From sequence record ON470591.1: a stretch of DNA of 26,627 nt; one strand, 5' to 3'. Below the pieces are notes generated by a model. It saw only the letters and a list, made by a program, of their open reading frames with translations, had not been told where the DNA came from and searched no databases. Below are positions 1,428-26,627 of the stretch, piece after piece (position 1 is the stretch's first letter; each line of letters begins with the position of its first letter). A program made the position numbers and the translations under genes. This DNA comes from Escherichia phage vB_EcoM-613R2.

Positions 1428-4273
1428 TATGCAAGCCTCACAATATAATTAAATGCGATGTTTTTAACGGTGTTTTCCGCGTTACCAGCAGCGTTAACGG
1501 TGATGGTGTGTCCATGTGAACCAATCTTAACAGAGTGCGTATGAGCGCCAATACCAACAGTGTGTGCATGTGCCCCAGCACTTGTAGCGGTACCTGATAC
1601 TGAGTGGGTATGTGCGCCAGAAGAAGGCACAGTTCCATTCCCCACCACCGTGCCACTTGATGAACCATCCAGCCAGTCGAAATTCATACCGCCACTGTTT
1701 GGTCTCCTTAATGGAACGGTATGAGTATGTGCGCCAGCACTATTTGCAGTACCAGATACATTGTGGGTATGTGCACCTGTGTTATTCGTTGATTTAGTAC
1801 CGTAATCAAACGACGATGTGGTTTTCGTACCCAAATCCGTACTGGATGCGCTGGCACTGTGGGTGTGCGATTTAATGCCATCCTGTTCCTGAGACAATAC
1901 GGCCCGACCACTGGCGGGTTTGCCCTTGATTGTCCAGCCGCGCATATCTGGAATAACACCAGAAGGATAGGCAATAGCCAGTTTCGGATATGCTGCCTTA
2001 TCAAACGTCTGCCCCTGCATGATTGCATAACCTGCAGGTGGCGTATCTGATGGCCACGGCAGCGGAACACCTGGCGGAAACGCTTCAATATTTGCCGAGC
2101 CGTCAAATTTTACGCCGTTAATTGTCCTTGCCGTTTTCAGCTTTGTTGCTGTAGCAGCATTGCCGGATAGTTCGCCTGAAAGACCACCGCTGAATGTCTG
2201 TTTCGCCATCCATGTCTGAGCTTCGTCGATAATTGGCACACGTCTTGTCGTGATCGTGCGGCTTCCCGGATTTCCTGAAATGCGAACCATAAAAAAGCGG
2301 TAGTTGGCTTTACTTACAGTGCTGCGCCATACATGCATTGAGCGTCCCGAACCAGAATCATCACTCGGACCGACTGAGATGTTTATCAGGTTGCCATCAA
2401 TGACGCCCCAGTCCATACCGTCGGGAATATTGGTCATGTTATCAAGCCGAACGGTTATCAGACTGCCCGGCACAAAATCGTAGGTCTGCCAGTCCAGGCT
2501 GGTGAGCTTTGCCACAGCACCGCCGATACCCAGATTCAGGGGAAGTGAATACGAGGTGTAGACTTCCCGCCATTCGCTCCATGAGCTGCCGGTAAAGACG
2601 CGCTCAAAGGTGCGGCCTTTAAGGGTTGTACCTGTTCCGGCAGTTGTATAACGCTGCCATACATTAACACCATCAAACCGCCTCAACACTTCCAGAATGC
2701 CGAGTACAGTCACGCCGTTTCCGTCCAGTACTGGACCGTTGGTCGCTTTACCTGTAACGCTGTAAATACCTGGTGAGGTTACATCATTCAAATCACCTTC
2801 GTAATAACGACTCTCTGACTGATGACCGACTCTTAACCACGGTTCCCACTGCGGATTTGATGCATCCCAGCTTGCCGCAAGACAGCGGACATACATATTT
2901 CCACGGCGAGTGGTATAACGTTGCGTTCTTCCATAATTTCCGCCTTCGAGGATCTCAAGCATCCCCTGAGCAAAGCCGCCTTCCTCTGGATAATTGCGTT
3001 CATATGAAGCTATAGCTGAGCTACTGTTACGCCATAAACCAAGATGCTCGGCGGCTCCAAGCGTATTCAGGTCTATAGTCGTACTCAAAGGGCGGGTAGC
3101 AGATTGAGTGTGACGCCATACGCCCCACGGACCATCAGTGCCATTCCACTTATTGGCGAGTTTACGCATGTATACATTGCCGTCTCTCGTGGTAAAGCGT
3201 TGCGTACCTGCAAAATGGCCGGCAGCAAAAACCTCAAGCACACCGACAGCATTATCTTCCGGGAAATTTTTCTCCAGTGTTGCGTTGGTGGATGTTGCTT
3301 TAGACCAGATACCTGAATAAGCCTTAACAGGACCAAACGTATTCAGATCAGCATCAAGCGGCATTTCGCCATTGTTTTTCATAAACGTCAGGCTGGTAAC
3401 GCCAACATTGTCCAGAAAAGCTGATTTATCCTGGATATCTGCACCGTTCTGATTTTTCGCCAGACGTGAATTTGCGTTGTCATTTGCTGCCTTGACCGCT
3501 TTTGGCGTTGCCGCCTGCGTTTCAGACGTACTGTTAGTGGCACTACTGAGCTGAACTATCCCTTTTTGTGCCGTGGTGGCATTCTGGGCGGTATATTTTC
3601 CGTCAGCCAGGTCATATGCAGCCTTAACAGCCTTAGGCGTCGCTGCGAGCTTTTCAGACGTGCTATTGGTGGCATTACTGAGTTGAACAATGCCTTTTGA
3701 TGTTAAAGTTGCATCAGGATGATTACGTGATTGCTCATGTTTTACAATAGCTTGCTTAAGCCGCTTTGCTGAAACAGCCAGGGAATCATCTGTACCTGCA
3801 TCAATTTCTTGTTCATTAGCAAATCTTGCTACTCCAACAACAGTTTCGGTTGCGGGAGGGTTAATAAACTCAACATCACCAAATGTAATGTTTTTAGTAT
3901 CAAGATTTTTAATTGCTATATCACTTGATATTAAAGCAATTGTAGAAGATGCTTTATTTATTATTACTTGTTCTTGCGAGTATACAGCAAACAATGTTCC
4001 TTTATTTGTATACAAACCTATTGTATGGACAACATACTCATCTTTACTATCATCCTTCGCAGTTACATGAATGGTATCAGGAGAAACGACTTTGCCTCCT
4101 ATTGTGGTAAGTCGCTTTATTTCATCTGTTATTTTTGTTTGTGTGGTTGATGTGGCATAATATCTACTACCTAAACCAACAGAAACGATCTCAACTTTAT
4201 TTGTTCCAGTCTTGTTGGCATTAACCAGCGCCTTACGCCCGGCGTCAGTCATCGTAAATAATAATTTACTCAC
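1427..4273 (-). CDS. Tail fiber protein (P2 H / lambda Stf-like long fiber)
   Basis: 948 aa. GTG start at 4273 preceded by AAGGA. Two tandem copies of the phage fiber repeat ([26 protein letters not shown]), internal R(F/Y)TTR.GN.Y.R repeats, and a His-rich C-terminus with repeated G-A-H-T-H-(S/N/T)-V motifs typical of fiber receptor-binding tips. Lies between the baseplate I gene and tfa. Confidence 0.9.
3476..3718 (-). repeat. Two tandem in-frame copies of the phage tail fiber repeat inside the fiber gene
   Basis: Protein residues about 186-222 and 231-266 are near-identical ([31 protein letters not shown] versus [31 protein letters not shown]); the underlying DNA is visibly repeated. Confidence 0.8.
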
Positions 4274-6783: not shown

Positions 6784-7400
6784 GCCTGAGCCTCCGTTGT
6801 CGGAGCGTATTCCCCCTGAGCTGTGTGATGGTGGCCTTTAGATTTAATCCCATCAACATCTATATCACCACCAACAACCTTAACATTCCCAGAAATTGTA
6901 GCTGCAACACCTCCAGCAGAAGATCCTTTCATTCCACCTTTGAAGGTTAGTAATCCTTCAACTGTAGCATTTCCGGTAATGATGGTTTCTGGAGCATCAA
7001 TAGTTACGGTTCCTGTAGCCTTAATGGTTACATCTCCGACAGCATCAACAAGGAGTAAATTAGATTCTCTGTCTATCTCAATACGAGTTCCGTTATTAAA
7101 TCTAATGACGCGTTTATTAACAGTATTAGATGGCGGCTTCTGTGTTTCATCATAAAAACTACCAAGAATAAAACCTTGTTGCGGCCCCGCGGGATGAAAG
7201 ATACACAAAACTTGCTCACCAATATCTGGCATCCAGTAATCAGCATTCTTATCTGTATTTTTCACAATAACTGATAACTTTGCCGAAGTGACGTTATCCT
7301 GATCATCGAAAGTAACTCTTGCTGTAACATCACCATCATCAATATCAGAAACAACGCCAACTCTTATAGTCTGACGTAATAATGTTTCTAAATCATTCAT
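6780..7400 (-). CDS. Baseplate spike/hub protein, P2 gpV-like
   Basis: 206 aa. The N-terminal region (VGVVSDIDDGDVTARVTFDD) and a Gly-rich C-terminal half with repeated V-x-G-x-V segments and an HHH stretch fit gpV-type spike proteins; lies upstream of the W-like gene. Confidence 0.75.
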   Translation of the reverse strand: MNDLETLLRQTIRVGVVSDIDDGDVTARVTFDDQDNVTSAKLSVIVKNTDKNADYWMPDIGEQVLCIFHPAGPQQGFILGSFYDETQKPPSNTVNKRVIRFNNGTRIEIDRESNLLLVDAVGDVTIKATGTVTIDAPETIITGNATVEGLLTFKGGMKGSSAGGVAATISGNVKVVGGDIDVDGIKSKGHHHTAQGEYAPTTEAQA

Positions 7401-7402
7401 AA

Positions 7403-8404
7403 TTAATACCCATTAATTACTCTTCGGACATCAATCGAGGTGGTATAACCACTAGTCCCAATTGAATGCACAGCTTTCGATATAAGATATTTTCCAGAAA
7501 ATGAACCGAATCCCTCCAGATTTATAGTTACACCAGCTACCAATCTGGTGTCTCCAACCAATACTAAAGATCCGGTATTTTGATATCTATTTTTAAGCCG
7601 CAAAGCAGCCTTTGCCTTACGTTTTGCTTCATCTAAATTAGCTACCAGTTTTCTTATCTTAAGATTCGACCCTTCTTCTACGGATGGATCTACCCAAGTA
7701 TACGAAAGCGACTTTCTTTTTTTAGGTACGCGATATTTGCACGTGCAACTTTTATACAAATCTGTAGATTGTGTGCTAAAGCTATATCTGATTATCTCAT
7801 CAATACCTAACGTAAGCGTAGCGATAGGATCTTTTTGCTCAAACATCTCTTGAGCAAATATTATTAATTGGCTATCAGTGACCTTTAACGACAACCCTTC
7901 ATCCTGGCAAAGTCGATGGAGAAATTTTAAATCGCTTTCCTCCATTTGATCTTCACGCGCATAATATGGATTACTATCACCATCAATAAGAAACAACAGT
8001 TCAAGGTTAGCTAATTTAGCTATAGAAGTTGCTATATCTTTAAGAGTTGTTTTTTCCCATGCATTACTTTTTAAATCACGTCTAATGCCTGATGAAACAG
8101 GAACAGAAACAGCAGTTACCTCAACCACAGAAGGTGGTCCAGAGCAAGTTATGCCATCTACCTGGAATTTCCCGCACTCAAGGACGATTTGATTTATAGG
8201 CTTAAAGCTCAAATCAATAAAATCACCCTTTTTAGGTGTCCAGTCTCCAGACCATTTCCCATCATCATTTTTTAATATAATAGAAATATCATCGACCTGA
8301 CCATCTTCATTATCTGTATAAGACATTGACAAAACATCAGGTGACATATGAGCGGTAATATTTACATTCTGATATATAACATCAAAAAGCGTTTTACGTA
8401 ACAC
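7403..8404 (-). CDS. Tail/baseplate hub protein, P2 gpD-like (late control D family)
   Basis: 333 aa. GTG start at 8404 with GGAGA upstream. Positioned between the X-like and V-like genes as in many P2/Mu-type tail modules. Assignment is by size and synteny. Confidence 0.65.
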   Translation of the reverse strand: MLRKTLFDVIYQNVNITAHMSPDVLSMSYTDNEDGQVDDISIILKNDDGKWSGDWTPKKGDFIDLSFKPINQIVLECGKFQVDGITCSGPPSVVEVTAVSVPVSSGIRRDLKSNAWEKTTLKDIATSIAKLANLELLFLIDGDSNPYYAREDQMEESDLKFLHRLCQDEGLSLKVTDSQLIIFAQEMFEQKDPIATLTLGIDEIIRYSFSTQSTDLYKSCTCKYRVPKKRKSLSYTWVDPSVEEGSNLKIRKLVANLDEAKRKAKAALRLKNRYQNTGSLVLVGDTRLVAGVTINLEGFGSFSGKYLISKAVHSIGTSGYTTSIDVRRVINGY

Positions 8405-19689: not shown

Positions 19690-21546
19690 CTATATGGTTA
19701 CGCCTTTACTTATAACTCTACGGCGTCTTCTACGTATACCTGACGAGTTCTGCACATACACATTACCTCGCATTTCCTGTTCGGCAAGCCAGTTAAAATT
19801 AGGGTTCAGAATTTCCATCGCGGCAGTTGCATAGTTACGGCAATCAAGAGGCTCGTTACGCTCGTAGACTTTCACCCACTTTTCTTTTGTCTGCCCATTT
19901 TTATATTCAAATATTTTTTTCTCTGATAATAATCCTTTAAAGTATTCGGTATCATATCCTCTGTCAGAATCTAATGGGAAATGCATATAACCAGGACCAG
20001 GATCATGTAGTTTAATTCTTGCCATGATGGTCCCTTTACCATCATCAACCCCCAAATTAAACAACATAGCACCCACACGGTTATTATTACTTGGCTTTCC
20101 TATAAATGGTAAACCTACCCCACCACGCCCCCTGATAGAGTATATTCGCCTTGATTCTCTCGGCTTAGTAAAGCGATATACCTCTGTCGTAAAATGCCCA
20201 CCAGAGTCAATACAAACGGAAGAAATCTGTAATTTTCGACCGTCACGGAATGACCAGCTACGGAGTAAGTATTCATCAAGTTGTTTCCAGACAACATCTT
20301 GTGCGGGATCACCTGGGAATATTTTATATTCTATCCCCCATGACTCCTTACCTTTTCCCCAACCGACCAATTCACAAACTAAATACGTGTCCTGTACGTC
20401 AACACCAGCACTTAACAATAAAACATCATCTGGTAAAAACTCTTCAAACCTTATTCTGCGTTGCAACAAGTATTCAGGATCGATATCGTCTTTAGCATCC
20501 TCTTTCCATGGCTCACCCAGCTTAAGGTTAATAAACTCCATTAATCCATTTTTATCGCGGTTTCTGGTTGCTTCCGTAAATTCTTCAACCAGCTCTGACA
20601 ATGCAACCCACGGGGAGTAAAGACTGTTAATATGAAAACCAACAATACCTTTAACTCCAGTATGTTCAGCTATCCATACCCCCTTCGCCAACCAATCAAC
20701 GTCTGGTTTACCAGATCCGCGCATAATCCCGCCGCACTCACAGCACTCATATCTGGCCGTTTCCGGTAACGCCTCACCTGAATCGCTCTTATCCCATCTG
20801 ACTTGCGACCATTTCATCACCTGCATGGTGCCACAACATGGGCAAGGAACATGGTAGTAACGCTGATCGGAGAGCTTAAACCACTTGTGGATTTTGCTTG
20901 TTTCCTCCAAAACAGGAGTAGAAACAAAAACTTTCTTACGATTATGAAAGTTGGTAGTACGCTGAATACCTAGTTTTAGTGGGTCGCCCTCCTGCGTCAC
21001 ACCGTAACGATCAATCTCATCACCTAACAGTATTCGAATTGGCCTGGATGCAAGACCTGCTGGGGAATTAGCACCAACAAGTGCTATATATCCACCAGCG
21101 TAATGCTTCATACGTATAGTCGTGCTGGACTTTTTGGCTGCACCGCGCCCCTCTTTCCCTTCATGCAGCTTGTGTTTCAAACCAGGGGAATATTTGAACG
21201 TCGGATCAATACGCTCTTTTGAAAAAGCCTCAGCCGCCTCTACCGTTGGATAAATCATCAACTGAGGAGATGGCTCCTGATCTGCAAAGTAACCCATAAC
21301 ATTTAGCTGTAATTCGGATTTACCAATTTGCGAGCTACATTGCATCACTACTGTTTCTGTATCAGCGTCACCAATAACATCCATTGGTTCACGCAAATAT
21401 GGCACTCGGCTTGTACGCCACGGCCCTGGCTCTGGAGACGTTCCCGGCGCTACATGACGATACTTATCAGCCCATTCGGAAACAGTTAGCCGTGATTTAG
21501 GGCGAAGCGCACGGAAAAAAGCGGTGCTCCATACTGTTTCGCCCAT
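19690..21546 (-). CDS. Terminase large subunit (lambda gpA family)
   Basis: 618 aa. The N-terminus (TVSEWADKYRHV) resembles the lambda gpA N-terminal region. Cys-rich pairs (CPCCG, CCECGG) are present. Sits between the small terminase and the gpW-like gene. Confidence 0.9.
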   Translation of the reverse strand: MGETVWSTAFFRALRPKSRLTVSEWADKYRHVAPGTSPEPGPWRTSRVPYLREPMDVIGDADTETVVMQCSSQIGKSELQLNVMGYFADQEPSPQLMIYPTVEAAEAFSKERIDPTFKYSPGLKHKLHEGKEGRGAAKKSSTTIRMKHYAGGYIALVGANSPAGLASRPIRILLGDEIDRYGVTQEGDPLKLGIQRTTNFHNRKKVFVSTPVLEETSKIHKWFKLSDQRYYHVPCPCCGTMQVMKWSQVRWDKSDSGEALPETARYECCECGGIMRGSGKPDVDWLAKGVWIAEHTGVKGIVGFHINSLYSPWVALSELVEEFTEATRNRDKNGLMEFINLKLGEPWKEDAKDDIDPEYLLQRRIRFEEFLPDDVLLLSAGVDVQDTYLVCELVGWGKGKESWGIEYKIFPGDPAQDVVWKQLDEYLLRSWSFRDGRKLQISSVCIDSGGHFTTEVYRFTKPRESRRIYSIRGRGGVGLPFIGKPSNNNRVGAMLFNLGVDDGKGTIMARIKLHDPGPGYMHFPLDSDRGYDTEYFKGLLSEKKIFEYKNGQTKEKWVKVYERNEPLDCRNYATAAMEILNPNFNWLAEQEMRGNVYVQNSSGIRRRRRRVISKGVTI

Positions 21547-21551
21547 GAGGT

Positions 21552-22103
21552 TTATTCTTCCTGCTTAATAAATCGGGATTCCTGGAGCGCCTGAAGCGCA
21601 AAATTAATCTCGTCTTCAATAATGCGCTCGATCTCCCTGGCTGTTTTGCCTTCACAACGGGGAGCTGCTCTTGGAGCAATACTAAATAAGCGGCTACGCA
21701 ATTCATTAGCTGCCAGAAATGCATCATCCCTGACCGCATCTTTAGCGATGAGAGAGCCTTCCTTTTCTTCAAATTCAAGGCGTTTCAGCTTTGCCTGATA
21801 AATTTTTTCTGCGGTCTTAGCCTTGTTGAATTGCACCGCAACACCGGAAGTACCACCAGCTAATCCGGCATCATCAGCGGGTAACTCTGGTTGTTCCGAA
21901 GATATCCCATGCCCTCTTTTTCCATTTTCAGCAGATACCTCACGACCAACCTGTCGGCTCGCTTCATAAGCCGCACTGGCTTTATCAAAATCCAGCTTGC
22001 CGCTTTTCAGCACTGGAATGCGACCGGAACGACAGAGCTTCGTAACCATTGCCGGAGAAATACCTTTCCGGCGGGCAAACTCTGACTTACTGACGATGGC
22101 CAT
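21552..22103 (-). CDS. Terminase small subunit (lambda Nu1-like, N-terminal helix-turn-helix)
   Basis: I place the start at the ATG at 22101-22103 (MAIVSKSEFARRKGISPAMV...), which overlaps the upstream TAA (TAATG). The ORF track opens 9 nt earlier at a TTG. The N-terminal HTH followed by PVL.SG.K resembles Nu1. Confidence 0.75.
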   Translation of the reverse strand: MAIVSKSEFARRKGISPAMVTKLCRSGRIPVLKSGKLDFDKASAAYEASRQVGREVSAENGKRGHGISSEQPELPADDAGLAGGTSGVAVQFNKAKTAEKIYQAKLKRLEFEEKEGSLIAKDAVRDDAFLAANELRSRLFSIAPRAAPRCEGKTAREIERIIEDEINFALQALQESRFIKQEE

Positions 22104-22693
22104 TACTTGCAACCATTAGCAAGATACTGAACAAATCCCTCATGCGTTTCATGCGCGTCGTGGTACTGACGATAAACATCCAGCAACAATGCAATTTCCA
22201 TATCCGTCGCGGGAATACGTTCTTTATCAATAGCCAGGTACTTAATTTGAACAACAGGGGAAGAATTATCGTCTTCTTCCTGCGGCTGTTCATCGCTTAA
22301 CATTTCGTCAAGCTCTGCATCATTAAACCCAAGCAGATCAATATCAAAATCATCATCCATTAACTCTTTGACTTCTTCGGCCAGAAGCTGCATATCCCAG
22401 CCAGCATTTAAGGCCAGCTTGTTATCTGCAATCCTGTAAGCCTTCTTCTGTTTTTCAGAAAGGTTACTCAACCGAATCGCCGGAACTTTATCCATTTCCA
22501 GAATTTCGGCTGCTGCAAGCCGCCCATGCCCCGCAATCAGTTCATTCTTTTCATCGATCAGCACAGGATTAGTGAAACCGAACTCACGGATACTGTTCAC
22601 CAACTGTTCAACTTGCTCATCTGAATGAGTCCGTGAATTTTTGGCATATCTGAGCAACTTACCGACTGGTAAATATTCGATTTTTAGAGCCAT
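22103..22693 (-). CDS. ParB N-terminal-domain (ParB-like nuclease/sulfiredoxin-fold) protein, copy 1
   Basis: 196 aa with the ParB-NTD-type core NSRTHS...PVLIDE.NELIAGHGRLAAA and QKKAYRIADNKLALNAGWD. Translationally coupled to the small terminase gene. Paralogous to 25359-25982. Confidence 0.8.
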   Translation of the reverse strand: MALKIEYLPVGKLLRYAKNSRTHSDEQVEQLVNSIREFGFTNPVLIDEKNELIAGHGRLAAAEILEMDKVPAIRLSNLSEKQKKAYRIADNKLALNAGWDMQLLAEEVKELMDDDFDIDLLGFNDAELDEMLSDEQPQEEDDNSSPVVQIKYLAIDKERIPATDMEIALLLDVYRQYHDAHETHEGFVQYLANGCK

Positions 22694-23249
22694 TTTTTAA
22701 CCGCCATAACACAACAGGTTAAAGAAAACTGTTTAACTTATTGATACTAAAAGAGAAAAATGACGATCTTTTTACTCATAAAAAATCACACAAACCAGCA
22801 TAATTATCTGATTTTATTAAGTTTTTATAAGTAAAAAGGATCTTGCGATGGTGTTTTGGTTAAAAGATTGGATGTATTTGCATGATTTATAACGATTTTT
22901 ATCAGAACAACATCACATTGGTTAAAGATCTGCGCGTATCTTGATGATCTAAAAGAAAATTTTCCACTTTCTTTTTACCAGTACAAATACAGAAAAAATC
23001 ACGTTTTCCCGATATTTTTCAATGAGATGAGTAAATTTCTTTTACCGCAACTTTTAACCTAACTTTTTTCACGTTTAGCTAGCCGAATATCGGGGTTCGA
23101 ATGACCCGCATCCAACGCTTTTGGCCAGAAGGACCCAATTCTGCCGGACGATGAAACGATGCTCGTGCTCCCCCACAGACAGCCAGCGAGCGACGCTACA
23201 GAACACAGTGAATACACTCTGCATAACAACACCATCAACCACACGATGA
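22694..23249. other. Long non-coding region of about 556 bp, AT-rich in its lower part and GC-richer in its upper 160 bp; candidate packaging (cos) and/or regulatory region
   Basis: No convincing ORF on either strand: the two small minus-strand ORFs overlap each other and have no Shine-Dalgarno. It is the only large gap in the window and sits upstream of the packaging operon. Confidence 0.4.
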
Positions 23250-23969
23250 TTAACGAGAGAAAGTCTTAGAAAGAATGTCATCAATAGCCTTTGTGACTTC
23301 ATCAGCAAACGCATCCTCACCAGCACGCAGCGCCACGCCATGCCAATCAAGACGCTGCGAATAGTTAGGTTGCTGGATAAACGTAAGGATCAACGTAGGA
23401 CGCCGCCCAACGCGCTGCCAGACGCCTGGTTGAAGCGGGTTACTTGTACCAGGTCGAACAACAAAAAACTCCGTAGGCTTGCCCTGACGGCGATTTTGAT
23501 GCGCATCTCGCTGAACTCTTAGGCCAGATAAGACCTGCTGTAATTGCCCCCGCGAAATATTCCCGTATTTGTCCAGCTTTGCGCCGGGACCAGGAGCAAG
23601 CTGCCAGCCGTTAGGCAAATATCCACCAGCCCTTAGCGCCCCTTCTGAGCGTTTGTACTGTCGTTGTCCACCTTCGATTTGCGGAGTCAACGTTACAGGG
23701 GCTGGCGTTCCTCCCCATTCACGAGCATACACAATGGCTGTAGGATCACTCTTCTTTGCGGCCAAAACGTAAGTAGAGTTCTGAATCCACGGCGTGGGCC
23801 TGTCAAATACCCGATTAATTTCATTCTTAATCGCAGCCTGAGAAGCCTTTGCCGTTCTGGTTGCCGCAAGCGCCATTGCGAACGGCAATTCGCGTTCTTC
23901 AAGGCGCTGGAGTTGTCGTTGAATATCCTGAGAAGAAAAATCCATCTTTATCTCAATTCTGTCAGCCAC
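23250..23969 (-). CDS. Hypothetical protein (239 aa), last gene of a three-gene operon with the ParB/methyltransferase genes
   Basis: GTG start at 23969 preceded by a strong AGGAGG 5 nt upstream; an alternative ATG lies at M9. GC-rich. Gly/Pro/Arg-rich central region. No motif recognised. Confidence 0.6.
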   Translation of the reverse strand: MADRIEIKMDFSSQDIQRQLQRLEERELPFAMALAATRTAKASQAAIKNEINRVFDRPTPWIQNSTYVLAAKKSDPTAIVYAREWGGTPAPVTLTPQIEGGQRQYKRSEGALRAGGYLPNGWQLAPGPGAKLDKYGNISRGQLQQVLSGLRVQRDAHQNRRQGKPTEFFVVRPGTSNPLQPGVWQRVGRRPTLILTFIQQPNYSQRLDWHGVALRAGEDAFADEVTKAIDDILSKTFSR

Positions 23970-23985
23970 CAGCGCCTCCTACACA

Positions 23986-25359
23986 CTACTTAATCAACGG
24001 CCGGAAAGCCGCCAGCACATCATCAGATCGTCCGATTGTTGAACCACCAGGCAACGGCAACTCAAACTCAAAACGAACAGCTTTCTCCAGACTCGCCCAA
24101 CTAAGGGAATCATCGTTAATGACGTGCAAATACCAGCTCTTACAGTTGAATATTGACCGCTTAATCCTGAAACCATGTACACGACACAACTGCTTCACTT
24201 CATCATCAGAGTGAAACTTCTGGTAAAACCAGTGCCCCTTCCGGTACAACGCGGTAAAACCGTTATGATCAATAAAATAAAGCCGGCTTTTGGAACTCGC
24301 CGCTTGTGTTTGCTTCAGGACTGTTTCCAGCTCTCCACGGCTACGACCAGAAAAGAATATTGACCCACCAGCTTTACACAGGCCTTTCAGAACCGTCAGA
24401 ACGGACCATTCAGCCTCGACACTATCGACCGAGTTCAAAACGCTATCGCAAATCACGTAGTCGTAACGCCCTCGCGTTTTTAAGTCGTCCACCAGCGTAT
24501 CAATCATCCGGTTTGTTGCGGTCCTATCCAGAGTGTTTCCAGCGCCCTTACGGCGGAAAAGCTCGAGATCATGCAGGTTATATCCCTTTGCCCTGAGCAT
24601 TCGCGCGTAGTCTCCCTGCCCCGAACCAAAATCAATTCCTCTTGGCGTCTTGGCGATGATCGGGAGGATCAACGACTCATACAGGTTTGATTTCAGGCTG
24701 CCACCATTACGCAACCGCATAAGCTGCGCATACGTCTGGATGTATGTTGTTTTCTCCAGATGAGAATACTCAAATACACCATAAGTTTTATTCAGATAAC
24801 TTTGGTATTTTCCCTTCTCAACATCAGGGATCACAAACACCGTTAGCGGTGTGCGCGTCATCTTCGCTGCTAATGCATACTGAGCACAGTGAATAACCTC
24901 GCCAGACTGAGTAGCAACACAACCACCCCACGGACCATACTTGATAACCAGTTCCGCTATGTTCTTTCGAACATATGCCATTTTCGCGCGCATATTGCCT
25001 GAGATCTGGCTTGCCGATACCTGAACAAAACCATGCTTATCTTCCAGACCGGACACCCTGCAACGCTCATCTCCGCTATCAAAATCCGTTCCGTTATGCA
25101 GTTGGTTAAACCGTACTTCGTCGTATACCGTCGTTTCACAGGGCAACACATACACCGCAGCACGCGTTATTCCCAACTTACGTAGCGCCTTCGTCCTTTG
25201 GTGTCCCGCCACCAGCAAATCGCCACGCACTATCAATGGCTTCACAAGCCCCAGCTCCCTGACGCTTTCCGCCAGCCTCGCAAGATCATCCTCACCGATA
25301 AAACGCGGGTTATATTCCGCGCCACGTAGGTGCGTTATGTCGTAATTGAGGTGAAGCAT
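23986..25359 (-). CDS. Fusion protein: N-terminal ParB-like domain plus C-terminal class I SAM-dependent methyltransferase domain
   Basis: I place the start at the ATG at 25357-25359, which overlaps the upstream TGA; the track opens at a GTG 6 nt earlier. N-terminus has a ParB-NTD-like LVAGHQRTKA. C-terminal half carries Rossmann methyltransferase motifs: motif I GIDFGSGQGDYARML, an acidic residue after beta-2 (NLHDLEL), YDYVICDSVLNSV, and LKGLCKAGGSIFFSG. No DPPY/NPPF amino-methyltransferase motif seen. Confidence 0.75.
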   Translation of the reverse strand: MLHLNYDITHLRGAEYNPRFIGEDDLARLAESVRELGLVKPLIVRGDLLVAGHQRTKALRKLGITRAAVYVLPCETTVYDEVRFNQLHNGTDFDSGDERCRVSGLEDKHGFVQVSASQISGNMRAKMAYVRKNIAELVIKYGPWGGCVATQSGEVIHCAQYALAAKMTRTPLTVFVIPDVEKGKYQSYLNKTYGVFEYSHLEKTTYIQTYAQLMRLRNGGSLKSNLYESLILPIIAKTPRGIDFGSGQGDYARMLRAKGYNLHDLELFRRKGAGNTLDRTATNRMIDTLVDDLKTRGRYDYVICDSVLNSVDSVEAEWSVLTVLKGLCKAGGSIFFSGRSRGELETVLKQTQAASSKSRLYFIDHNGFTALYRKGHWFYQKFHSDDEVKQLCRVHGFRIKRSIFNCKSWYLHVINDDSLSWASLEKAVRFEFELPLPGGSTIGRSDDVLAAFRPLIK

Positions 25360-25982
25360 CAGCACACCTCCCCAGCCAGCAATGCGGATACAAATCCGAT
25401 ATAGCTGCCATTATCATCAACATAACGAGACACCGCGCAGTCAAAACGATCCGCTTCCTCATCCGTTGCCGGGATTTTATGACCTCCAAATGACAGGTAC
25501 TGAACTTTTACGCCTGATTTGGCCTCATCCTTCTCAAATGGGATATCCATACCCTCTGTGTCATCGTAGACCGCCGCACTCAATAAGTTATCCAGTTCGC
25601 GCTGAGTAAAACCAATTGAGTCCAGAGCAAAATCATCGGCCGCAAGATCTGCAAGCTCCGCGCTTAACAGCTCTTCATCCCAACCAGCATTCAGCGGAAT
25701 ACGGTTGTCGGCCAGACGATATGCCTTCTTCTGATTCTCCGTTAGCCCTTCCAGAACAATGCAGGGAACGTCATCCATCCCCAACTGAGTGGCCGCAGCA
25801 ATTCGACCATGACCAGCAATTACAACGTTGTTCTCGTCTATCAGGATCGGATTAGTCCATCCGTACTCCTGTATGCTGGCAACAATCTGATCTACCTGCT
25901 CCACGGAGTGTGTGCGAGCGTTCTTTTCATAACCAATCAACACAGAAAGTGGTAAAGAAACCACATTAAGATGTTTTGTCAT
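25359..25982 (-). CDS. ParB N-terminal-domain (ParB-like nuclease/sulfiredoxin-fold) protein, copy 2
   Basis: 207 aa. Collinear similarity to copy 1 (NARTHS...NPILIDENNVVIAGHGRIAAA...QKKAYRLADNRIPLNAGWD...K.QYL....KIPATD). ATG at 25982. First gene of the three-gene operon. Confidence 0.8.
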   Translation of the reverse strand: MTKHLNVVSLPLSVLIGYEKNARTHSVEQVDQIVASIQEYGWTNPILIDENNVVIAGHGRIAAATQLGMDDVPCIVLEGLTENQKKAYRLADNRIPLNAGWDEELLSAELADLAADDFALDSIGFTQRELDNLLSAAVYDDTEGMDIPFEKDEAKSGVKVQYLSFGGHKIPATDEEADRFDCAVSRYVDDNGSYIGFVSALLAGEVC

Positions 25983-26127
25983 GCCGTTTATCCGCTAAAA
26001 TCCCCTCGCTTGTGCAAGCAAGTGGGCCTCGGTTTGTATCCACGGCACCCTGTGGGTATGAATGACTGTCGTCAGGTCGCAACTGACGGCGGTCGCCCAC
26101 CTTCCAGTAATAAAAAAGCCACCAGCA

Positions 26128-26153
26128 TTAACTCCACAGCGAGCTGGAGTTAA
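26128..26153 (-). terminator. Candidate stem-loop downstream of the 26217-26627 gene (9 bp stem, 8 nt loop), with a T-run about 10 nt further downstream on the minus strand
   Basis: TTAACTCCA-CAGCGAGC-TGGAGTTAA is a perfect inverted repeat. On the minus strand it is followed by TGCTGGTGGC then TTTTTTATTA. The T-run is not adjacent and the stem is AT-rich, so terminator function is uncertain. Confidence 0.3.
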
Positions 26154-26216
26154 TGAGGCAGCTTTGGTTTGCGCATTATCGCAGCCCCTGATAAGCACAA
26201 GAGCTGCTGTAATGCG

Positions 26217-26627
26217 TTACGCAGGGATCAAACAGATGTGGCCGTTATTTACCTCAATACGGGAATATTCCTGCTTACCATCCACGATTCCGGTAATGAC
26301 AAGTTCGCCATCAGGCGACCATTCTTCTTTGTCGTCTTCAAGTACCGCGCCTTCTGGCAAATCAATACAGGCAAAAACAGGGCAGCCAGGATGACGTTTA
26401 TCCTCCATCGCAATCAGCATCGACTCACCGAACCACTCTGTGGTAGCACGGCCATCAGCCGCCTGATAGTGAATCAGATACTGGTTTTCGCCATTTGCAT
26501 ACTGAGCACGGGCTTTAACTTCTCCCCATTCGTCACTGATACGCATTGTTACCAGTTGGGATAATTCAAACTTAAACGGAACAGCATCTGCACCAATGGC
26601 AATCGGTTTATCTTCTTTCTTTTCCAT
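26217..26627 (-). CDS. Hypothetical protein (136 aa as seen); the ATG coincides with the window edge, so the gene may extend beyond it
   Basis: Open frame from the window edge to a stop at 26217. Acidic protein. No motif recognised. Followed by a 234 bp non-coding gap. Confidence 0.5.
   Translation of the reverse strand: MEKKEDKPIAIGADAVPFKFELSQLVTMRISDEWGEVKARAQYANGENQYLIHYQAADGRATTEWFGESMLIAMEDKRHPGCPVFACIDLPEGAVLEDDKEEWSPDGELVITGIVDGKQEYSRIEVNNGHICLIPA

Follow-up and report, generated by a model that had tools for sequence, protein, structure and literature searches.

ParB-fold proteins are nucleotide switches that have been reused beyond chromosome segregation, and few of the phage examples have a known job. 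The question raised by the stretch of DNA examined here, 26,627 nucleotides of Escherichia phage vB_EcoM-613R2 (record ON470591.1; the whole stretch is referred to as the window), is what role is played by a group of such genes encoded ahead of the packaging genes. Four genes are considered (Table 1): A, which encodes a stand-alone ParB-like protein; B, in which a ParB N-domain is joined to an S-adenosylmethionine (SAM)-dependent methyltransferase; C, which follows B; and D, which encodes a second ParB-like protein beside the terminase genes. A sequence-only reading of the window had described A, B, and C as three co-oriented genes, and all three open reading frames (ORFs) are present as described, with the same boundaries as in the RefSeq annotation of a 99.5% identical plasmid against which they were checked. 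The same reading had treated the three genes as one operon. The comparisons described below lead to a different grouping, in which A and B are a conserved two-protein unit, while C reads as a gene that is co-transcribed with them here only through its location.

Pairing and Fusion of Genes A and B

The family to which B belongs is large, with 776 relatives at 90% clustering in a word-indexed search and 308 representatives (50% identity) at E ≤ 1e-30 in an exhaustive profile search of 1.84 billion proteins. Nearly all of these representatives are 450-490 aa long and match end to end. For the survey of genomic context 80 further viral loci were fetched and 89 loci were analyzed, which fall into 42 clusters at 80% identity of B. 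Of the 41 clusters having upstream sequence, 39 have an A-like ORF upstream of B in the same orientation, mostly with an overlap of a few bases with the start of B. A ParB-like gene of about 200 codons directly precedes B in Bacteroides phage BS-TP3 (35% identity), in a Klebsiella prophage, and in a metagenome contig; in a Bradyrhizobium prophage the A-like gene is located about 0.7 kb ahead of B, and a gene on the opposite strand intervenes. The A-B cassette is found in at least two phyla, the Proteobacteria and the Bacteroidota. The sequence-only reading had allowed that the fusion protein might prove to be a well-characterized DNA methyltransferase whose neighbors do not co-occur with it; this did not turn out to be so, and A accompanies B far beyond chance. 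The co-occurrence check proposed there holds for A and fails for C, which does not accompany B beyond close relatives.

Natural single-chain fusions of the two proteins also exist. The metagenomic proteins P0365 and P0367 (658-659 aa) carry both parts, with residues 36-189 of P0365 aligning with residues 32-203 of A, including a C-terminal GFFASLLG that corresponds to GFVSALLAG in A, and residues 198-657 aligning with the whole of B. Since the fusion of two genes in some lineages is a classical sign that their products cooperate, P0365 and P0367 support a joint function of A and B, although not a dependence of B on A.

Two B-family members have no detectable A-like gene upstream, one in locus L053 and one in Brochothrix phage BtpYZU02 (L009, 5911-7245). 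In the Brochothrix phage the gene after B encodes an HNHc nuclease, and B lies among replication genes, about 4.8 kb from the terminase.

Domain Organization of the ParB-Methyltransferase Fusion

The B protein consists of a ParB N-domain, a strongly conserved middle domain of 155 aa, and a class I SAM-dependent methyltransferase. Its ORF may alternatively begin at a GTG two codons upstream of the ATG, giving a 459-aa version, and it matches PHROG 5475, a family of unknown function, over nearly its entire length (E 9.3e-265; ORF residues 3-459 against profile positions 1-457 of 458). The AlphaFold2 (AF2) model of B has a mean predicted local distance difference test (pLDDT) score of 93 and a predicted template modeling (pTM) score of 0.89. 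The N-domain scores 24.3 bits against the Pfam ParB_N profile, just under the cutoff of 26.3, and matches PHROG 620 at E 4.9e-14. Its GxxR P-motif is intact, with G52-H53-Q54-R55 invariant in an alignment of 45 B sequences.

The middle domain is specific to the family. Its invariant residues include E81, F84-N85-Q86, H88-N89-G90-T91-D92, D94, W144-G145, H157, Q160-Y161, and Y193-G194, and it has no PDB sequence match at E ≤ 10 and no meaningful Pfam match. The predicted order of secondary structure elements in residues 128-177 resembles that in residues 23-71; a profile-profile comparison of the two segments, made with the idea of a second, degenerate ParB domain, gave no signal.

The methyltransferase fold spans residues 233 to about 415 and is recognized by Methyltransf_23 (PF13489; 32.6 bits, cutoff 27), and the AF2 model matches class I methyltransferases with probability 1.0 in a Foldseek search of the PDB. 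Motif I reads DFGSGQG and is followed by the acidic residue E266 and by R269-R270, while the motif IV region reads CDSVLNSVD. Motif I, E266, and a cluster formed by D305, N309, S310, and D312 are invariant in the 45 sequences, and the SAM-binding motif is intact. The cluster is located where DNA amino-methyltransferases carry DPPY. The earlier description of the middle gene product as a ParB N-domain joined to a class I methyltransferase that lacks a DPPY-type motif is upheld by Pfam matches and a motif scan alike, and the profile and structure searches suggested at that time confirm the class I assignment.

The Stand-Alone ParB-Like Proteins A and D

In the A protein the ParB N-domain, whose P-motif (GxxR) reads GHGR, is followed by a helical segment, an acidic linker, and a conserved C-terminal domain that ends in GFVSALLAG. 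It matches PHROG 620 at E 2.9e-74 and scores 24.8 bits against ParB_N. The matches of A and B to this profile (PF02195) are below the cutoff yet significant (E 2-3e-5), and membership in the ParB family is further backed by PDB matches to ParB, Spo0J, and Noc. Among 38 A-like partners of B the glycine and arginine of GxxR are kept at 90% or more, and the conserved positions are G57, R60, N93, W101, and GF196-197.

The third ParB-like gene that had been noted at the terminase is D, which is 48% identical to A over its full length and carries the same GHGR motif. D scores above the ParB_N cutoff (33.7 bits) and matches PHROG 620 at E 4.6e-75. The first 150 or so residues of A and D resemble the N-terminal module of ParB-N6/N4 DNA adenine methyltransferases, with matches to PHROG 498 (E 1e-50 to 4e-52, the former for A) and to the PADLOC model MTase_II, PDLC03229 (E 6e-38 to 2e-40, the former again for A). 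With D as query, tblastn detects the module in 401 phage records, where it forms the N-terminal part of proteins annotated as adenine or DNA methyltransferases or else is a gene of its own at the start of the genome. A D-like second copy beside terS occurs only in the cluster of the window and one 69% identical relative among the 42 clusters; D is an ordinary terminase-adjacent ParB-like gene that stands apart from the A-B unit.

A Pfam scan of A, B, and D detects no helix-turn-helix (HTH) domain. NCBIfam yields only sub-threshold matches to ParB, Noc, and SerK, with no dnd-related methyltransferase found in that search, and the profile for canonical partition ParB (TIGR00180) returns 31, 16, and 40 bits against a cutoff of 58.45, which is not reached.

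Family X and Gene C

The end of B is abutted by the gene for a member of an unannotated family of about 145 aa, referred to here as X, in at least 22 of the 42 clusters. It usually overlaps the stop codon of B by 3-22 nt, is often coupled to B in translation, and is found on the opposite strand in some loci. Invariant residues of X are Y18, W20, K22, H32-C33-A34, C68, N79, H81, and C131-R132-N133. There are about 780 relatives, all without a name, and searches of Pfam, PHROG, and the PDB give no match. When two X relatives were examined independently the arrangement A-B-X-terminase was found again. The common cassette is A-B-X, while the lineage of the window has A-B and then C, because X follows B in most lineages while an X profile run against the full plasmid related to the window finds nothing.

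Gene C has a distribution of its own. Only three settings combine a C-like gene with B: the cluster of the window, a 69% identical relative (L021), and L061, in which the C-like gene has a different position, upstream of A. The C relative of Pseudomonas phage F10 comes after the lysis genes and closes the annotation of the linear record, and three unrelated metagenomic phages carry such a gene by itself, directly before terS and a GpA terminase with a lambda-type portal. A three-gene functional unit is not supported by these comparisons, and C reads as a gene outside the A-B unit.

The C protein matches PHROG 1924, annotated as a minor tail protein (E 2.5e-97), and its AF2 model (pLDDT 87) predicts a beta core between long N- and C-terminal helices. 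The Pfam family Minor_tail_Z gives a weak match in 8 of 44 C relatives, with C itself below every Pfam threshold. Based on these profile matches and the predicted fold, C is probably a virion protein of the neck or tail-completion type that travels with the lambda-type head and packaging module, an identification made with moderate confidence because C reaches no Pfam threshold. Its core appears similar to that of the lambda gpZ and HK97 gp10 neck proteins. Unlike these, C is about twice as long, with long terminal helices, its gene lies upstream of the putative cos and the terminase and not in the tail module, and the family occurs in both siphovirus and myovirus genomes.

Position Beside the Packaging Genes

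A downstream ORF of at least 380 aa is present in 40 of the 42 B clusters and was tested in 31 of them, nine of the 40 having been outside the Pfam scan. Of those tested 27 encode a large terminase. In 11 clusters this is the GpA type, and among the other 20, which were scanned with Pfam, 16 match Terminase_6, Terminase_3, or TerL_ATPase/nuclease, one is a portal gene, and three have no match. The cassette lies 0.2-2.6 kb upstream of large terminases from at least four unrelated families. In the Klebsiella prophage, the metagenome contig, and phage BS-TP3 the cassette is directly followed by terminase genes; the Bradyrhizobium prophage has its nearest terminase gene about 8 kb downstream, at the edge of the locus. 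That the terminases belong to at least four unrelated families speaks against a specific mechanistic link with any one packaging enzyme, and the terminase-proximal location maintained across families supports a late-expressed role just before packaging.

A few kb downstream of A-B-X in the Bradyrhizobium prophage (L003/L004, 11054-17196) is a cluster of genes encoding GGACT/AIG2-like cyclotransferases, Amidoligase_2, and an N6_Mtase-like protein. Gene sets of this kind are linked to peptide-type tagging or DNA hypermodification.

Relationship to Described Systems

The architecture of B is already known. ParB-Methyltransf_23 proteins have been catalogued as phage-enriched with no function given (Kaljevic et al., PNAS 2025; PMC12704722), and B shares with them the same two Pfam domains in the same order as well as enrichment in phages and prophages. 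B is thus not a new kind of gene. Kaljevic et al. screened one bacterial and one phage representative for nucleotide binding, with an R-to-A mutant of the phage protein made as control, and reported ATP binding for ParB fusions to SAM-dependent methyltransferases; across various fusions the ParB/Srx fold binds ATP, CTP, or GTP (PMC12704722). The tested proteins, uvig_65837_18 and UBA3002, are possible members of the family of B. No substrate, small ParB partner, terminase-proximal cassette, A-B fusion, or X is described there, in contrast to the loci considered here, and the small partner, the fusions, the frequent X, and the terminase-proximal position were not found described anywhere. The sequence-only reading had been unable to match the gene set to a described phage function and had left its function undetermined. 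The latter stands, as no characterized function and no functional study of the family of B were found in the literature. The former has to be qualified by the assignment of B to PHROG 5475 and by the published catalogue.

In a functional precedent, the action of a thymine dioxygenase on double-stranded DNA is activated by a small phage ParB that has no DNA-binding domain (O'Toole et al., PNAS 2026; PMC13229309). These 5mYOX/ParB clusters are often near terminases (PMC13229309). Like the ParB176 protein of 5mYOX176, A is a small phage ParB encoded beside an enzyme and has an N-domain of the nucleotide-binding ParB type, a C-terminal domain, and no HTH. The enzymes differ, that of 5mYOX176 being an Fe(II)/2-oxoglutarate dioxygenase without a ParB domain of its own and B being a SAM methyltransferase that has one. 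The 5mYOX176 enzyme was shown to be ParB-dependent on double-stranded DNA, whereas a dependence of B on A would be an extrapolation. The second related group is the ParB-N6/N4 DNA adenine methyltransferases, which are also common in phages. In these enzymes the ParB module is fused to a DPPY-type PF01555 domain, while here this type of ParB is a separate protein and the methyltransferase of B belongs to another class I subgroup with no DPPY-type motif. Among plasmid-borne adenine methyltransferases, M.EcoGIX and M.BceJIII act on single-stranded DNA (Fomenkov et al., NAR 2020; PMC7736820). The A-B cassette is best viewed as a variant of the systems in which ParB assists nucleic-acid modification.

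Proposed Role of the A-B Unit and Alternatives

In the role proposed here late transcription would cover A, B, and C as the final genes ahead of cos and the terminase, and the one-nucleotide overlap of A and B would have these two proteins made in fixed proportion. In canonical ParB two N-domains close around nucleotide. A and B, which each have one ParB/Srx N-domain with an intact GxxR motif, could join through these domains into a heterocomplex gated by nucleoside triphosphate (NTP), with the conserved C-terminal domain of A adding further contacts. Such a complex would hold the methyltransferase of B on replicated phage DNA, and progeny genomes would be methylated before they are packaged. 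The benefit might be protection from restriction-type defenses in the next host, or a marking of phage DNA. The observations themselves extend to the domain anatomy, the conserved pairing and fusion of A and B, the position close to terminases, the intact SAM-binding and GxxR motifs, and the lack of canonical DNA methyltransferase motifs; the complex, its gating by NTP, and, above all, DNA as the substrate are inferred. Methylation of phage DNA by the A-B complex before packaging is put forward tentatively, at somewhat less than an even chance, because the catalytic domain of B resembles small-molecule and tRNA enzymes. A stronger proposal would have A-B (A-B-X in most lineages) write a DNA methyl mark other than N6-methyladenine, N4-methylcytosine, and 5-methylcytosine, using a class I methyltransferase of the small-molecule type that is delivered by a heterodimeric, nucleotide-gated ParB clamp. 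This is decidedly unlikely; were it true, hundreds of phage lineages would carry a novel class of DNA methyltransferase and employ the ParB switch in a novel way.

Several observations weigh against a DNA-methylating complex. The best 50 Foldseek PDB matches of B are small-molecule, tRNA, or uncharacterized class I methyltransferases at 10-17% identity, the named ones being 3d2l, 3h2b, Trm9, GNMT, and METTL6, with no DNA methyltransferase among these 50. Matches in BFVD are limited to generic viral class I methyltransferases and ParB proteins, with no full-length relative of B. The B sequence has no [DNS]PP[YFWH], PCQ, or ENV motif and indeed no PP dipeptide, and Pfam finds no match to PF01555, PF02086, PF05063, or a cytosine-C5 methyltransferase profile. 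A, B, and D all lack a recognizable DNA-binding domain. An MT-A70 methyltransferase is already encoded elsewhere on the same element, which with this gene has a conventional candidate adenine methyltransferase besides B. The 155-aa middle domain of B and the frequent partner X are left unexplained. Gating by NTP is not assured, because mutation of the nucleotide-binding residues of the 5mYOX ParB did not abolish activation (PMC13229309).

In an alternative reading B methylates a target other than DNA, which could be an RNA such as tRNA, a protein of the phage or the host, or a small molecule such as a nucleotide, and the ParB domains of A and B serve as nucleotide sensors or scaffolds in place of DNA clamps. 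A non-DNA substrate is quite possible, if on the whole somewhat unlikely, because the nearest structures, among them Trm9, METTL6, GNMT, and NodS-like proteins, are class I enzymes acting on small molecules or tRNA. It would also fit the missing DNA methyltransferase motifs and DNA-binding domain, the occurrence of the ParB/Srx fold in sulfiredoxin and a serine kinase (both weak matches here), and the invariant R269-R270 and W377-F378 of B, which would suit a nucleotide ligand. DNA is favored over such substrates by the ParB module of A and D, which elsewhere is attached to true DNA methyltransferases, by the position of the cassette beside unrelated terminases, which is typical of phage DNA-modification genes, and by the fact that the sole functionally tested small phage ParB partner acts on DNA. 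Identification of the substrate of B would reveal either a new DNA-modification chemistry with which phages counter host defenses or a ParB-controlled methylation of a non-DNA target late in infection.

The same position beside the terminase genes could instead mean that A, D, and the N-domain of B are packaging nucleases or helpers that recognize pac or cos sites or concatemers, the methyltransferase being secondary. "ParB-like nuclease" is a frequent database label for the domain, the cassette is steadily found beside terS and terL, D is translationally coupled to terS, and 5mYOX clusters too co-occur with terminases. Such a role is nonetheless very unlikely given that the terminases concerned are of the cos as well as the headful type and come from at least four unrelated families, that most related phages package without the cassette, that no nuclease catalytic motif was identified, and that the strict coupling of A with B and the invariance of the SAM-binding residues indicate selection for methyl transfer. 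A module for defense, anti-defense, or exclusion, directed at competitors or host immunity (for example at a signaling nucleotide or a host factor) and not at the phage's own genome, is given only a slim chance. Accessory genes are often found at such a position, anti-defense roles have been suggested for phage ParB fusions (Kaljevic et al.; PMC12704722), and the ParB fold has reportedly been repurposed as a toxin. The PADLOC matches, however, cover only the shared ParB module of the type II methyltransferase model and no defense effector, the genes lie in a late operon behind a terminator-like hairpin and away from lysogeny-expressed genes, and their wide conservation beside terminases suits a role in the lytic cycle. 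Finally, the element replicates as a plasmid and encodes ParA, and several records label proteins of this kind as partition proteins, which raises the question of whether A or D is the centromere-binding ParB of plasmid partition. This candidate was examined and rejected as extremely improbable: A and D have no HTH and remain at 31-40 bits against TIGR00180, parA is about 14 kb away beside a small downstream gene of its own, and the same genes are found beside terminases in integrated prophages and lytic phages.

Gene Layout and Expression Signals

The features of the region are collected in Table 1. The coupling that had been proposed for A, B, and C is present as a single base shared by the stop codon of A and the start codon of B (TGATG) and as the ribosome-binding site ahead of C, and the 3′ end of D likewise overlaps the start of terS, by 10 nt. 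A consensus scan finds no sigma-70-like promoter or terminator above chance inside the three-gene stretch, which fits co-transcription of A, B, and C.

Table 1. Features of the A-D region of the window and example loci of family X.
Feature	Position	Strand	Description
Gene A	25359-25982	-	Stand-alone ParB/Srx-type protein, 207 aa
Gene B	23986-25359	-	ParB N-domain, middle domain, and methyltransferase, 457 aa from ATG
B residues 1-75	25135-25359	-	ParB N-domain
B residues 76-232	24664-25134	-	Family-specific conserved middle domain
B residues 233-457 and stop	23986-24663	-	Class I SAM-dependent methyltransferase and C-terminal helical tail
Gene C	23250-23969	-	239 aa, GTG start; putative gpZ/HK97 gp10-like core
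Gene D	22103-22693	-	Stand-alone ParB-like protein, 196 aa, paralogue of A
terS	21552-22112	-	PHROG 57 terminase small subunit, E 7e-42
GpA-type large terminase	19690-21546	-	GpA_ATPase E 1e-75, GpA_nuclease E 1e-84
AGGAGG ribosome-binding site	23975-23980	-	5 nt before GTG of C; read from sequence
Terminator-like hairpin	26109-26165	-	Stem of about 20 bp, then U6; within 234-nt spacer upstream of A
AT-rich non-coding spacer C-D	22694-23249	.	556 bp, GC about 0.40; candidate cos/late-regulatory region
Family X, example loci	L005:2210-2644, L003:9419-9883, L094:5001-5432, L095:2161-2616, and about 20 others		Absent from the window

The spacer upstream of A (25983-26216) folds at -96.7 kcal/mol (z = -4.68), with none of 200 shuffled sequences as good. 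The hairpin within it, which is not listed by a simple consensus terminator scan, is probably an intrinsic terminator or a site of regulated read-through, and would isolate A-B-C from the upstream gene, barring late read-through transcription. The spacer between C and D may hold cos, because the records of Yersinia phages vB_YpM_39/41/44 (99% identical) start and end at about positions 23095-23107 within it. A repeat search of this spacer returned only short imperfect repeats, and Rfam gave no match in the region 22000-26627, in which it is included.

The 136-aa ORF upstream of A (26217-26627, - strand) matches PHROG 1935, a family of unknown function, at E 8e-66. A longer ORF of 714 nt is annotated at this place in the Yersinia phages, for which no paper was found in the literature.

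The Phage-Plasmid Carrying the Cassette

Circular E. coli plasmids of about 47-50 kb and the Yersinia phages share 99.2-99.5% identity with the window. One full plasmid record, NZ_CP024865.1, encodes repA, parA, a toxin-antitoxin pair, and lysis genes, together with a complete lambda-type head module (GpA terminase, portal_2, S49/ClpP protease, decoration protein, and capsid E) joined to a contractile, myovirus tail. The element is an E. coli phage-plasmid of 47-49 kb, as its plasmid genes occur together with lysis genes, a complete head module, and a contractile tail. Carriers make up 74 of 5426 complete E. coli genomes, nearly all with a plasmid-borne copy, which makes experiments straightforward, and PLSDB holds 62 such plasmids, every one typed as non-mobilizable.

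On the circular map the order is lysis genes, tRNA, MT-A70 methyltransferase, small ORFs, the 136-aa ORF, A, B, C, the spacer, D, terS, and terL, and A, B, and C lie in the late region of the phage-plasmid. The MT-A70 family gene is located at 7228-7815 of the full plasmid record (L001), outside the window, with the tRNA gene likewise between the lysis genes and the cassette.

The genes A, B, and C had been described as richer in guanine plus cytosine (GC) than the virion genes, and their GC content is indeed 0.48-0.525, compared with roughly 0.36-0.45 for most virion genes. The difference is not specific to them, as similar values run through the entire non-virion half of the plasmid, and the higher GC content is therefore rejected as the mark of a recently acquired three-gene island. 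The split is sharp, lying between 1-21000 and 21000-26627 of the window and between 31500-48000 and 1-31000 of the full plasmid, with 0.36-0.44 in the head and tail module and 0.46-0.51 in the rest of the phage-plasmid. This suggests different origins for the virion module and for the half that carries replication, lysis, and accessory genes. Parts of the tail-fiber gene, at about 1800-3000 of the window, are GC-rich again (0.51).

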